Shown: positions 18,553-29,922, numbered from the stretch's first letter. The stretch is 64,000 nt of DNA from Escherichia coli (GCF_013122565.1 NZ_CP053258.1); one strand, 5' to 3'. Translations and numbers: made by a program. Notes: generated by a model from the sequence alone, not told the origin.

Positions 18553-19718
18553 AAACTGTTTTTCACAGCTTATATATGATCAAATACTCCTTACATAAAT
18601 AAGGAGAACAAAATGGAACTTAAAAAACTGATGGAACATATTTCTATTATCCCCGATTACAGACAAGCCTGGAAAGTAGAATATAAATTGTCAGATATTC
18701 TACTATTGTCTATTTGTGCCGTCATTTCTGGTGCAGAAGGTTGGGAAGATATAGAGGATTTTGGTGAAACGCATCTCGATTTTTTGAAGCAATATGGTGA
18801 TTTTGAAAATGGTATTCCTGTCCATGATACCATTGCCAGAGTTGTATCCTGTATTAGTCCTGCAAAATTTCACGAGTGCTTTATTAACTGGATGCGTGAT
18901 TGCCATTGTTCAGATGATAAAGACGTCATTGCAATTGATGGGAAAACGCTCCGGCACTCTTATGATAAGAGTCGTCGCAGGGGAGCGATTCATGTCATTA
19001 GTGCGTTCTCAACAATGCACAGTCTGGTTCTCGGACAGATCAAGACGGATGAAAAATCTAATGAGATTACAGCTATTCCTGAACTTCTTAACATGATGGA
19101 TATTAAAGGAAAAATCATCACAACGGATGCGATGGTGTGCCAGAAAGATATTGCAGAAAAGATACAAAAACAGGGAGGTGATTATTTATTCGCTGTAAAG
19201 GGAAATCAGGGGCGACTAAATAAAGCCTTCGAGGAAAAATTTCCGCTGAAAGAATTAAATAATCCAAAGCATGACAGTTACGCAATTAGTGAAAAGAGTC
19301 ACGGCAGAGAAGAAATCCGTCTTCATATTGTTTGCGATGTTCCTGATGAACTTATTGATTTCACGTTTGAATGGAAAGGACTGAAAAAATTATGCGTGGC
19401 AGTCTCCTTTCGGTCAATAATAGCAGAACAAAAGAAAGAGCCAGAAATGACGGTCAGATATTATATCAGTTCTGCTGATTTAACCGCAGAGAAGTTTGCG
19501 ACAGCGATTCGAAATCACTGGCACGTGGAGAATAAGTTGCTCTGGCGTCTGGATGTAGTAATGAATAAAAGACGACTGCAAAATAGGAAGAGGAAACGTT
19601 CAGGGATAAGACATATTGCAATTAATATTTTGACGAAAGATAAGGTATTCAAGCACGGTTAAGACGTTCGATGAAGACAGCGACTACCTGCGTCAGTCTT
19701 TGTGAGGAGCGGACTCTA
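18553..19718 (+). mobile_element. H-repeat (ISAs1-family) element, near full length
   Basis: Contains the 349-aa H-repeat transposase ORF; its 5' flank (ttatatatgatcaaatactccttacataaataaggag) is repeated at about 21220 upstream of a decayed second copy. Boundaries are approximate. Confidence 0.75.
18613..19662 (+). CDS. H-repeat-associated (ISAs1-family) transposase, possibly C-terminally frameshifted
   Basis: 349 aa starting [32 protein letters not shown], matching recalled H-rpt proteins of Rhs elements and O-antigen clusters; the tail (…[13 protein letters not shown]…KHG*) departs from the recalled canonical C-terminus, which reappears out of frame after the stop. Confidence 0.8.
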
Positions 19719-19848
19719 GTAATCCAACTTTGTTGTTAGGTTTTACTCGCGGAATAATCATGGGCGAATTTTATTAAAAATGTATATTTTCCTAATTAAA
19801 AACATGTTTAAAAAAGAAACACAACTTTCAAGCTAGGTTACTTATGAT

Positions 19849-21012
19849 ATGAAGTCAACATATTCTAAAATTAAAATTGCACATGTTCAATTGATGCCAC
19901 TACTGAGTGGTGTTCAGCGAGTATCGTTACAAGAATTCGAATTATTACCAAATGAACAGTTCGACATTAATTTAATTTGCAAAGAGAGTGGACCATTAAC
20001 TGATTATTTAGATGATAGTGTAAGGGCTTTTTTTGTCCCGACATTATGTAGAAATATATCGCTCATAGAGGATATGAAATCATTAATATCTTTATATAAA
20101 TTATTGAAAAAAGAAAAATATGATATCGTCCATACACACTCCTCTAAAACTGGTATTCTAGGGCGGATAGCTGCGCGGCTGGCAGGAGTTCCTTGTGTAG
20201 TACATACTGTACATGGCTTTGCCTTTGAAAGCACAAAAAGAAAATCAGTAAAGCTCGTATATAAATGGCTGGAAATATTTGCAGCCAAATGCACTACCCG
20301 GTTAATTTGTCTTCATAATGAAGATAAAGAAATATGTATAAAAGAACTATATGTTGATCCAATGAAAATTTCTGTAATTCCAAATGGAGTTGATTTGGAA
20401 AAATTCGCTCCAGCAATTAATAAAGGAGACTTAAAAGAAAAAATATTAGGGTTAAAAAGAAATAGCTTTGTATTTACCATGGTGGGACGGTTGTGGCCAC
20501 AAAAAAATCCGTTATATTTTGCTGAAGCAGCAAAGTATATTATAGAAAATAACTTAATACCTGATTCAGTTTTTGTCATAGTTGGTGATGGGGAGTTGAT
20601 GAATGATTTAAAATACAATTATCAAACAGATATGAATTTAAAAAAAAGGTTATTACTTTTAGGCTGGCGAAATGATATCCCAAACATATTAAAAGCAAGT
20701 GACGTTTTTGTTCTTCCTTCTTTATGGGAAGGAATGCCTCTTGCCATATTAGAAGCTCAATCTACAGGGTTACCATGTATCGTTTCTAATATCAATGGTA
20801 ATAATTGTTTGGTTAAGAATGAATTTGATGGATTCTTAATTGAACTTAATGATATTGATAGCTTTATAAATGCGTTAGTTAGAGTGACAGACGATAAAGT
20901 CTTAAACATTATGTCAAAAAATTGCCGTAATAAAATTGTTAATGAATTTAATATAGTTAAAAGAGTGGATAAAATTAAAAATCTATATATTGATATGGTT
21001 GTTAATAAATGA
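19849..21012 (+). CDS. Glycosyltransferase, GT4 family (O-antigen)
   Basis: 387 aa ORF in AT-rich DNA; C-terminal GT4 motifs (…ASDVFVLPSLWEGMPLAILEAQSTGLPCIVSNI…). Specific acceptor/donor not assignable from sequence. Confidence 0.8.
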   Translation: MKSTYSKIKIAHVQLMPLLSGVQRVSLQEFELLPNEQFDINLICKESGPLTDYLDDSVRAFFVPTLCRNISLIEDMKSLISLYKLLKKEKYDIVHTHSSKTGILGRIAARLAGVPCVVHTVHGFAFESTKRKSVKLVYKWLEIFAAKCTTRLICLHNEDKEICIKELYVDPMKISVIPNGVDLEKFAPAINKGDLKEKILGLKRNSFVFTMVGRLWPQKNPLYFAEAAKYIIENNLIPDSVFVIVGDGELMNDLKYNYQTDMNLKKRLLLLGWRNDIPNILKASDVFVLPSLWEGMPLAILEAQSTGLPCIVSNINGNNCLVKNEFDGFLIELNDIDSFINALVRVTDDKVLNIMSKNCRNKIVNEFNIVKRVDKIKNLYIDMVVNK

Positions 21013-21204
21013 TTGTGTGCTTTTAGAAAGTTTATATCAATATCGCACTGTATATTTTATTTTATGTAAATTTATTATGAATATAAAGGCATGGTAATTC
21101 ACATCATTATTTATATACAGACGCTGTTATTGGTATAGAGAAATATCATATAACATTAGTTTTCGCACAAAATGTAAAAAATGAAAGATTTATTACTAAG
21201 TAAG

Positions 21205-27969: not shown

Positions 27970-28003
27970 CAAGGCTATTATAAATTTATTTTAGGTGATA
28001 TCT

Positions 28004-28801
28004 ATGCTTCCATTAATATCTATTATTACACCGACATATAATAGAGCATATACTCTAGATCGGTTATATAATTCTTTAGTAACACAAGACTCTGAAAAAT
28101 TCGAATGGATAATAATCGACGATGGTAGTGCAGATGAAACACGGAAGAAATGTTTAGGTTATATAAATGATTCCATTTTTAAAATACAATATTACAAACA
28201 AGATAATAGTGGTAAACCCGCAGCTATCAATTTAGGAGTAACCAAAGCTGTTGGCGATTATATTTTTATTGTAGATAGTGATGATGCTTTAACATTAAAT
28301 GCAATTGGTACTATTTATGACTGTATTGTAAAATACACAGTCGCATCTGACTTTGAATTTTCCGGCTTAGGATTTAGAAAATCTTTTTTTGATGGGAAAA
28401 TGCTCGGCAAACATATTGAGCGGAATACGAATTCACCTATGCTGTTACATAGCACAGATTGTAATAATTTATTTAAAGTCGATTTAGCATATTGTTTTAA
28501 ACGAGAATTGATGATTAAATATCCTTTCCCAAAGTTTAAAGATGAAAAATTTGTTCCAGAACTGTTTATATGGAATAAAATTACAGATGTTGCCAAAGTA
28601 ATATTTTTTCCTAATGTTGTTGTATATTATTGTGAGTATCTGGCTGATGGACTTACAAATAATTTTAAAAAACAACTTCGACATAATCCAATTGGCTTTG
28701 CAGTATACTATAAAGATCAGTTCCATAGAGAACATTCTATATGGGGGAAAATAAAAATGGCAATAAGATATATCCAATGTATTATATATAAATTCATATA
28801 G
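28004..28801 (+). CDS. Glycosyltransferase, GT2 family (O-antigen)
   Basis: Track ORF from a GTG at 27995; ATG at 28004 preceded by aggtga; GT2 signature ISIITPTYNRAYTLDRLYNSL and DxD (IIDDGSADE, VDSDD). Confidence 0.75.
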   Translation: MLPLISIITPTYNRAYTLDRLYNSLVTQDSEKFEWIIIDDGSADETRKKCLGYINDSIFKIQYYKQDNSGKPAAINLGVTKAVGDYIFIVDSDDALTLNAIGTIYDCIVKYTVASDFEFSGLGFRKSFFDGKMLGKHIERNTNSPMLLHSTDCNNLFKVDLAYCFKRELMIKYPFPKFKDEKFVPELFIWNKITDVAKVIFFPNVVVYYCEYLADGLTNNFKKQLRHNPIGFAVYYKDQFHREHSIWGKIKMAIRYIQCIIYKFI

Positions 28802-28848
28802 TCATGCAGGGTTCATCCATTCATTTAATTAGTTGCTATGATTTTTAT

Positions 28849-29922
28849 ATGAAAATATTACATGTTGTACCACAGTTAAAGCATGGTGGTGTCGAAACTG
28901 CTGTTTTTAATTCTATTGAAAGGATAAGAAAGAGTGGATATGATTTTAATGTTTTGACTATTGAAAGAGGAAACTGCTTTAACAATTCATATGTAAAAGT
29001 AGAACACTGCTTAAATTCTTCTGTATACAATCCAGTTTGTTTTTATAAATTTATTAGATTTATTCATAAAGAAAAACCTGATTTGATAGTTTATTCTTTA
29101 TGGAAATCTGCATTGTTAGGAATTGCATTGTGTCTTTTAAAACCTTTTCTCAAAAGTAAGCCTAAAACCGCGTTAATTATACATAATACTAGGTTTGCAC
29201 ATTTTGTTGATTACATAATAACAAAACTTTCACTTAAAATAACCGACTCTATATATTTTGATTCGGAAAAATCAAAAGCTTACTTTCTGAATAGAGATTA
29301 TGCAACAGGCGAGGTTATTAGTTTTATCGATAAAAAGATGGTGGCAAAAAAATTTAATAATATCAATGGTGAGATTAAGTTTGTATTTATTGGTAGGTTG
29401 CACTCTCAAAAAGGGGTTGATAGGGCATTAAAATATATACATCTTTTTAAAAAGCAACATGAAGAAATACGATTTGATATATATGGTCCAGACGAAGGAG
29501 AATTGAATAATATTATAAATAAGATAAATAAATTAGGATTGCAGGATAAAGTTGTCTATAAAGGTGTTGTCGATAATAACAAAGTTAATGATATATTAAC
29601 CCAATATGACTTTTATCTTCAATTCAGCCATTTTGAAGGAATGGCAATGTCTGTTGTTGATGCGATGCAGGTTGGGGTTATTCCAATCGTTAATAATGTT
29701 GGTGAGATACCAAATTACGTAAAAAACAATATTAACGGCATTATCTTAGATGATAAAAAGCTTGGTGATGAAAACTATCTTAATTTAAATGTATCATGCT
29801 TATTAAATATCATAAAGAATGATGGTGGGTATTTTTTATATAATAACGCGATAAAGACATTTCAGGATAATAATACTTATGTAGATGACTATATAAAGAA
29901 AATAATAAATGCTAACAACTGA
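28849..29922 (+). CDS. Glycosyltransferase, GT4 family (O-antigen)
   Basis: Track ORF 28804..29922; start chosen at MKILHVVPQLKHGGVETAV; C-terminal …FSHFEGMAMSVVDAMQVGVIPIV… is GT4-like; last gene before gnd. Confidence 0.75.
   Translation: MKILHVVPQLKHGGVETAVFNSIERIRKSGYDFNVLTIERGNCFNNSYVKVEHCLNSSVYNPVCFYKFIRFIHKEKPDLIVYSLWKSALLGIALCLLKPFLKSKPKTALIIHNTRFAHFVDYIITKLSLKITDSIYFDSEKSKAYFLNRDYATGEVISFIDKKMVAKKFNNINGEIKFVFIGRLHSQKGVDRALKYIHLFKKQHEEIRFDIYGPDEGELNNIINKINKLGLQDKVVYKGVVDNNKVNDILTQYDFYLQFSHFEGMAMSVVDAMQVGVIPIVNNVGEIPNYVKNNINGIILDDKKLGDENYLNLNVSCLLNIIKNDGGYFLYNNAIKTFQDNNTYVDDYIKKIINANN

Follow-up and report, generated by a model that had tools for sequence, protein, structure and literature searches.

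Organization of the galF–gnd interval

The 64-kb window, which is the whole stretch of DNA analysed here, carries nine biosynthetic genes between galF and gnd. All nine were intact and lay on the plus strand (Table 1). Together with IS elements they accounted for every ORF between 18079 and 30041, and an ABC transporter (wzm/wzt) was not found among these ORFs. The initial annotation had listed wzx, wzy, two GT4 and two GT2 enzymes and amino-sugar genes for this interval, and all of these were present, with three amino-sugar genes. It had also stated that rml and man genes were missing, and no rmlBDAC or manBC ORF was found in the interval.

Table 1. Features of the galF–gnd interval and its surroundings, with positions counted from the first nucleotide of the window
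Feature	Position	Strand	Length	Basis
galF, left conserved flank	17185..18078	+		TIGR01105, 689 bits (cut-off 659)
JUMPstart with ops motif GGCGGTAG (18364-18371)	18337..18374	+		Exact ops match and direct reading of the sequence
ISAs1-family (H-repeat-like) insertion sequence	18553..19724	+		NF033564 transpos_ISAs1, E = 1.2e-112
First GT4	19849..21012	+	387 aa	RefSeq "glycosyltransferase family 4 protein"; Pfam Glyco_transf_4 and Glycos_transf_1
Second ISAs1-family remnant, degenerate, internally deleted, non-coding	21176..21752	+		tblastn and direct repeats
wzx, O3 O-unit flippase	21884..23377	+	497 aa	Pfam Polysacc_synt
First GT2	23359..24528	+	389 aa	Pfam Glycos_transf_2
wzy, O3 O-antigen polymerase	24525..25610	+	361 aa	Pfam EpsG, E = 3e-18
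FnlA/CapE-type UDP-GlcNAc 4,6-dehydratase/5-epimerase	25617..26630	+	337 aa	TIGR04130 FnlA, E = 8e-173
RmlD-like SDR	26643..27512	+	289 aa	TIGR01214 rmlD, E = 9e-16, below cut-off
WbuC-family cupin	27502..27969	+	155 aa	TIGR04366 cupin_WbuC, 132 bits (cut-off 42)
Second GT2	28004..28801	+	265 aa	Pfam Glycos_transf_2, E = 2e-24
Second GT4	28849..29922	+	357 aa	Pfam Glycos_transf_1, E = 9e-26, and Glyco_transf_4
gnd, right conserved flank	30042..31448	+		NF006765 and TIGR00873, both above cut-offs
wzzB, chain-length regulator working with Wzy	33009..33986	+		NF012015, 606 bits (cut-off 267)

Both galF and gnd exceeded the NCBIfam equivalog cut-offs. The wzzB ORF opened at 32973, and the NF012015 match spanned residues 13-337. 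The JUMPstart/ops element is an RfaH-dependent antitermination signal 5' of the cluster. Homology to a strain with a different O cluster (L003) stopped at 18374.

The base composition set the cluster apart from its surroundings. In 1-kb windows the GC content was 0.26-0.35 across about 19.5-29.5 kb, while the flanks with the colanic-acid genes and gnd had values of 0.50-0.56. The mean for the nine biosynthetic genes (19849-29922) was 0.302, against 0.526 for positions 1-17000 of the window, 0.511 for galF and 0.503 for gnd. The AT-richness of the interval was therefore borne out (30% GC in the biosynthetic genes versus about 51-53% in the flanks).

ISAs1 elements inside the cluster

The region of 18553-29922 does not open with a biosynthetic gene. 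Its first part (18553-19724) turned out to be an ISAs1-family insertion sequence. The two ISAs1 elements within this region were absent from the initial annotation.

The first element, which occupies positions 1-1172 of that region, contained a transposase ORF of 349 aa (18613-19662), and its left end may extend to about 18526. It gave matches of about 90-94% to ISAs1 copies in thousands of E. coli genomes. RefSeq labels it as an ISAs1 family transposase, whose ORF is split or carries a frameshift in the other O3 strains. Compared with those O3 clusters, a 1-bp difference in the window joined two transposase ORF fragments into the single 349-aa ORF.

The second element lay in the 872-bp gap that separates wzx from the first GT4 gene (21013-21883), and the two elements share one orientation. 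Searching by tblastn with the ISAs1 protein of the window produced a match at 21361-21495 (60% identity, E = 8e-12) and another at 21603-21752 (46%), the latter with in-frame stops. Direct repeats D1-D3, D5 and D9 in this copy showed 73-87% identity to 18526-19569, with a change in repeat spacing from about 2650 to about 2150.

Each of the 16 RefSeq O3 genomes, and Escherichia albertii, had both copies where the window has them. They are thus fixed parts of the standard O3 cluster.

Wzx, Wzy and the glycosyltransferases

With a flippase and a polymerase in the cluster and WzzB nearby, the architecture is that of a Wzx/Wzy-dependent O antigen. The Wzx protein matched PF01943 (E = 3e-8) and PF13440. 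Neither Wzx nor Wzy gave a family match in NCBIfam (0 hits), which has no HMM for the O3 forms, and the serogroup names used here were taken from RefSeq/NCBI annotation and an exact-sequence cluster look-up rather than from an HMM. Wzx was exactly WP_171460654.1, "O3 family O-antigen flippase", and Wzy was exactly WP_171459213.1, "O3 family O-antigen polymerase". The two shared 90% clusters with UniProt B5T073 and B5T075, respectively, which are the commonest O3 forms. Wzx was identical to B5T073 (on 574 contigs) at 496 of the 497 residues, and Wzy to B5T075 (on 780 contigs) at 356 of 361. Identity of these two genes is what in-silico O-typing relies on.

Wzy differed from its counterpart in O3 strain Ceylon31 by 7 nt and five residues (S5F, G26R, A27T, L212F and M356L). 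The exact Wzy sequence was present on one contig only in a collection of 15 billion proteins. The other proteins of the O3 Wzy cluster were 5-7 residues away from that of the window, so variation of this extent is normal in O3.

The families of the first GT4 and the first GT2 were taken from precomputed Pfam results on a 100%-identical Logan contig, plus the RefSeq annotation names. Compared with Ceylon31, the amino acid differences numbered 2 in the first GT4, 0 in the first GT2, 3 in the second GT2 and 4 in the second GT4. A Wzx/Wzy-dependent system with four glycosyltransferases had been proposed for this interval, and the gene content agreed with it. Counting one sugar for WecA in addition to these four enzymes would give a repeat unit of five sugars.

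The amino-sugar genes and L-RhaNAc

The FnlA-like protein scored 574 bits to TIGR04130, which is under the equivalog cut-off of 730, and matched PDB 4j2o (E = 3e-160) and CapE (E = 7e-137). It was identical in amino acid sequence to its Ceylon31 counterpart (0 differences). It probably catalyses the first step toward UDP-L-RhaNAc. The RmlD-like SDR clearly belonged to that family, with matches to PDB 2ggs (putative dTDP-4-dehydrorhamnose reductase; E = 3e-15) and Pfam RmlD_sub_bind. We interpreted this protein to be the likely C4 reductase that would yield UDP-L-RhaNAc.

No C2-epimerase was annotated or matched among the ORFs of 18079-30041. Since the cluster contains no such gene, the pathway is predicted to stop at L-RhaNAc and not to proceed to L-QuiNAc or L-FucNAc. 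In this respect it differs from the FnlC, QnlB and WbvD pathways. The FnlA/B/C pathway to L-FucNAc has the same type of first enzyme, followed by an SDR reductase, but the reductase of the O3 cluster is RmlD-like rather than FnlB-like and gave no match to NF047837. The WbvB/WbvR/WbvD proteins of Vibrio cholerae O37 reportedly make up an L-QuiNAc pathway, which is said to have been described by Kneidinger et al. in 2003. They have in common with the O3 cluster the FnlA/CapE-type dehydratase/epimerase and the SDR reductase. Relative to the 2-acetamido-2,6-dideoxy-L-hexose pathways, the O3 cluster adds the WbuC cupin.

The same arrangement, an FnlA/CapE-type enzyme and then an SDR reductase, is found in Mg534/Mg535 of Megavirus chilensis, which make UDP-L-RhaNAc (PMC10117803). 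In that study the two-enzyme route to UDP-L-RhaNAc was validated experimentally, and a third enzyme was predicted to lead to L-QuiNAc. Among E. coli O antigens, L-RhaNAc has been reported from O3 alone, where it forms a side branch (PMC7685785). PMC10117803 cites Jann and Jann 1968 for L-rhamnosamine in the LPS of E. coli O3:K2ab:H2. The initial annotation had predicted an N-acetylated 6-deoxy-L-hexose, to which L-RhaNAc corresponds in O3 (PMC7685785).

Identity with the O3 cluster

The whole region of 18553-29922 was covered (100%) at 98.7-99.3% identity in complete RefSeq E. coli genomes (n = 16). Its gene order was the annotated order in all 16, and their wzx and wzy carry the name "O3 family". 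In a gene-by-gene comparison with Ceylon31, each of the nine biosynthetic genes showed 0-5 amino acid differences, and the per-protein identity to the O3 counterparts was 98.6-100%. The reading as a new serogroup was rejected on these protein identities. The two ISAs1 remnants were also common to the window and the clusters of the 16 genomes. The differences from the O3 cluster consisted of about 57 SNPs over the 10-kb biosynthetic part and a 14-bp indel 5' of gnd in the window.

Locus, genes and order are those of the O3 cluster of E. coli, for which bioRxiv 10.1101/2022.07.24.501295 cites Ren et al. 2008. O3 is also included in the complete set of O clusters of 184 serogroups (Iguchi et al. 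2015, PMC4379981). The region is thus almost certainly the known, intact O-antigen biosynthesis cluster of E. coli serogroup O3 at the standard galF–gnd site, an assignment drawn from sequence comparison through NCBI and UniProt protein names, together with the literature. The initial annotation had left the serogroup and the novelty of the cluster open. Since wzx, wzy and gene order match O3, the cluster is a described one and not novel, and O-antigen biology gains nothing new from it.

Alternative readings

Two other readings of the same locus were considered. The changes in Wzy and the glycosyltransferases might have altered a linkage, such that the antigen of an O3-derived variant is no longer serologically O3. 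The five substitutions in Wzy, the three in the second GT2 and the four in the second GT4 relative to Ceylon31 are in favour of this, as is the single contig on which the exact Wzy was found. On the other hand, every protein remained 98.6-100% identical with gene content and order unchanged, the Wzy changes fall within the 5-7 residues that separate other members of the O3 Wzy cluster, and the exact Wzx and Wzy proteins are already named as O3 family by NCBI. We consider such a variant very improbable.

The locus might instead be silent or crippled in a rough strain, with the ISAs1 element between JUMPstart and the first gene blocking transcription. A 1.2-kb IS does separate ops from the first of the biosynthetic genes, with another remnant ahead of wzx. 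The identical placement of both copies in the 16 O3 genomes and E. albertii argues against a block, as do the nine intact ORFs of the window. Moreover, a strain with 14043 of 14049 bases of its cluster identical to the O3 reference produced a smooth LPS ladder and was agglutinated by O3 antiserum (bioRxiv 10.1101/2022.07.24.501295). Since strains that are serologically O3 carry these copies as fixed elements, inactivation by the IS was rejected, and a silent locus has hardly any probability left.

Conservation and lateral transfer

The divergence from Ceylon31 was 0.57% in the biosynthetic genes, compared with 4.1% in wcaM–galF and 3.3% in gnd–ugd. galF differed by 33 nt without any amino acid change (0), and gnd by 50 nt. 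The chromosomal flanks of the window were also diverged from those of the O3 genomes. Stronger conservation of a cluster than of its flanks, as seen in these alignments, is the usual sign of lateral transfer.

The same cluster was found in E. albertii GCA_024529815.1 (locus L006), where the core was about 99.4% identical and the flanks were diverged. All nine genes and their order were shared, as was the gap that sets wzx apart from the first GT4 gene. The flanks were 3-10% diverged, and the upstream colanic-acid cluster of E. albertii was cut down to a WcaM fragment. The entire block, the two IS remnants included, was gained through lateral transfer, with homologous recombination within or close to galF and gnd.

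The first GT4 gene is flanked by the two ISAs1 copies. It is conceivable, although rather unlikely, that this gene was captured as a composite-transposon-like module, adding one sugar to an ancestral four-sugar unit. This reading comes from the layout only; the copies are 73-87% identical, and independent insertions are equally possible.

Proposed assembly of the O antigen

From the layout, transcription would start 5' of JUMPstart/ops and run through the fixed ISAs1 element into the nine co-oriented genes. WecA would transfer GlcNAc-1-P onto undecaprenyl phosphate. Its gene was not within the 64-kb window, and the initial annotation had placed initiation by WecA elsewhere. Initiation by WecA has been shown in an O3 strain by an rfe mutant that lacks O antigen, a defect also seen in a waaL mutant, and polymerization by Wzy by a wzy mutant that carries a single O unit (bioRxiv 10.1101/2022.07.24.501295).

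Homology and the known sugar suggest that the FnlA-like and RmlD-like enzymes would convert UDP-GlcNAc to UDP-L-RhaNAc. The four glycosyltransferases would then supply the remaining sugars to complete the putative five-sugar unit. Wzx would flip the unit across the membrane, followed by polymerization by Wzy, with the chain length set by WzzB.

Significance

The O genotype of the strain was assigned as O3, which is of use in typing and epidemiology. If the first GT4 gene was indeed captured by IS elements, O3 would represent a preserved case of an O antigen that grew through IS activity. The locus also shows cleanly how an O-antigen cluster is passed as one unit from one Escherichia background to another.

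Composition and gene content

The feature map was drawn from the ORF list and the RefSeq annotation of near-identical genomes. The nine biosynthetic genes, from the first GT4 to the second GT4 (19849-29922), had a mean GC of 0.302, against 0.503-0.526 in the flanks (window 1-17000, 0.526; galF, 0.511; gnd, 0.503). In 1-kb windows, GC was 0.26-0.35 over about 19.5-29.5 kb, 0.50-0.56 in the colanic-acid genes and about 0.50 in gnd. The low-GC island between galF and gnd described in the initial annotation was thus borne out.

The genes listed there for 18553-29922 were also correctly described: ORFs and Pfam/NCBIfam matches confirmed wzx, wzy, two GT4, two GT2 and the amino-sugar genes, and, as claimed, no rml or man genes were found between galF and gnd in the ORFs and annotation of the interval. 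Two insertion sequence copies had been missed, one in the first 1.2 kb and one in the 872-bp gap before wzx.

Features of the galF-gnd block and its flanks
Feature	Position	Strand	Evidence or content
galF	17185-18078	+	above equivalog cut-off
JUMPstart	18337-18374	+	ops GGCGGTAG at 18364-18371
ISAs1-family element	about 18553-19724	+	transposase ORF 18613-19662
first GT4	19849-21012	+	precomputed Pfam hits, 100% identical contig
wzx	21884-23377	+	Pfam Polysacc_synt
first GT2	23359-24528	+	precomputed Pfam hits, 100% identical contig
wzy	24525-25610	+	Pfam EpsG
FnlA-like enzyme	25617-26630	+	TIGR04130 E = 8e-173; PDB 4j2o E = 3e-160
RmlD-like reductase	26643-27512	+	matches RmlD-type proteins only
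WbuC cupin	27502-27969	+	above NCBIfam cut-off
second GT2	28004-28801	+	Pfam Glycos_transf_2
second GT4	28849-29922	+	Pfam Glycos_transf_1, Glyco_transf_4
gnd	30042-31448	+	above equivalog cut-off
ugd	31697-32863	+	above equivalog cut-off
wzzB	33009-33986	+	above equivalog cut-off

Assignment to serogroup O3

The interval 18553-29922 was compared by megablast with 5,426 complete RefSeq E. coli genomes. It was matched over 100% of its length by 16 genomes, at 98.7-99.3% identity. Gene order was the same in all 16, in which wzx and wzy were annotated as 'O3 family O-antigen flippase' and 'O3 family O-antigen polymerase'. In about 5,200 further genomes the match was confined to the ISAs1 part of the query.

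All nine biosynthetic genes were intact and equal in length to those of the O3 strain Ceylon31, with zero to five amino-acid differences per protein: none in the first GT2, the FnlA-like enzyme, the reductase and WbuC, one in Wzx, two in the first GT4, three in the second GT2, four in the second GT4 and five in Wzy. The space between the second GT4 and gnd held 14 extra bases (29932-29945) relative to Ceylon31.

By exact-sequence look-up, Wzx was NCBI WP_171460654.1 and Wzy WP_171459213.1. Both carried the O3 family name and the label E. coli, and they were found together on one E. coli contig. The commonest O3 forms in the same clusters were UniProt B5T073 (Wzx, 574 contigs) and B5T075 (Wzy, 780 contigs). 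Window positions 13019-27010 were 100% identical to a Logan assembly contig from SRR11451224.

Since wzx, wzy and gene order agreed with those of O3 genomes, the block is, by these comparisons, an already described O-antigen cluster, that of serogroup O3. The initial annotation had left the serogroup open and had held that agreement of wzx/wzy and gene order with a known serogroup would make the cluster a described one; such agreement was found.

Sugar pathway and repeat unit

Enzyme activities, including the C2-epimerase step, were assigned from the homologous WbvB/WbvR/WbvD scheme. In this scheme, reportedly that of Kneidinger et al. in 2003, C2-epimerase is the third step. The first two enzyme types of the UDP-L-RhaNAc route were present, and no C2-epimerase was found in the window's cluster. 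From this combination, the FnlA-like enzyme and the RmlD-like reductase would produce UDP-L-RhaNAc.

Two enzymes suffice for UDP-L-RhaNAc by an experimentally validated route, and a third is predicted to convert its product to L-QuiNAc (PMC10117803). Among E. coli O antigens, L-RhaNAc is restricted to O3, and to a side branch (Liu et al. 2019 review, PMC7685785). L-rhamnosamine was reported in the LPS of E. coli O3:K2ab:H2 (Jann and Jann 1968, according to the passage citing them in PMC10117803). The O3 literature thus fits the gene content of the cluster, and supported the N-acetylated 6-deoxy-L-hexose predicted in the initial annotation.

Initiation by WecA, also predicted there, was supported by mutants of an O3 strain whose cluster equals the reference of Ren et al. 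2008 at 14043 of 14049 bases. O antigen was lost in its rfe (wecA) and waaL mutants, and only one O unit was formed when wzy was mutated (bioRxiv 10.1101/2022.07.24.501295). These phenotypes support polymerization by Wzy as well as initiation by WecA. Together, WecA and four glycosyltransferases imply a repeat unit of five sugars, which fits the earlier estimate of up to five.

ISAs1-family copies

A near-full-length ISAs1-family copy (18526-19724) filled the first 1.2 kb of the interval. The second copy (21176-21752), in the gap before wzx, was decayed and internally deleted, about 580 bp long and 73-87% identical to the first. The first GT4 gene was flanked on both sides by these copies, in the same orientation. 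This layout invites, but does not prove, capture of the gene by insertion sequences. Both copies were kept in all O3 clusters examined, including that of E. albertii.

A 1-bp difference from Ceylon31 at 19383 gave a single 349-aa transposase ORF in the window. The transposase is split into two ORFs in Ceylon31 and is frameshifted in the O3 strain KMi029, with about 359 extra bases.

Chromosomal backbone

The best identity among the 5,426 complete genomes was 97.4% for 1-17000 (the colanic-acid flank), 97.1-97.7% for 30000-52000 and 98.3% for 50000-64000, so that the backbone reached 97.1-98.3% against 99.3% for the O3 cluster. By this measure, the backbone is unusually distant from all of the complete RefSeq E. 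coli genomes. A 90-mer from wcaM had no match in GTDB species representatives. The host may come from an Escherichia lineage that has been little sampled, but its exact Wzx and Wzy sequences are labelled E. coli at NCBI.

Positions of about 51000-64000 contained a propanediol-utilization (pdu) operon. This is an accessory region, since at least 80% of it was covered in only 637 of the 5,417 E. coli genomes that gave a match. With 1-17000 as the query, E. coli genomes were matched at a median of 21 places each, which indicated a short dispersed repeat, probably REP/BIME, within the colanic-acid cluster.

Cluster boundaries and exchange

Divergence from Ceylon31 was 0.57% in the biosynthetic genes, 4.1% from wcaM to galF and 3.3% from gnd to ugd. 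The left shift lay near the 3' end of galF and the right shift inside gnd. Zero differences across 29946-30200 placed the right breakpoint within gnd.

All nine genes recurred in unchanged order in the E. albertii genome GCA_024529815.1, where the spacing between the first GT4 and wzx was also equal. The core of this genome's cluster differed from the window by about 0.6%, and its flanks were far more diverged. At 4636-6183 of the E. albertii locus, the colanic-acid cluster upstream of galF was cut to a 50-aa WcaM fragment; the O3 cluster downstream was complete.

In GCA_052983875.1, on the other hand, the left flank was 99.7% identical to the window up to exactly 18374, beyond which lay another O cluster. 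Position 18374, the end of JUMPstart/ops, marks the left limit of serogroup-specific DNA. The overall pattern is the familiar one of O clusters exchanged by recombination in the flanks.
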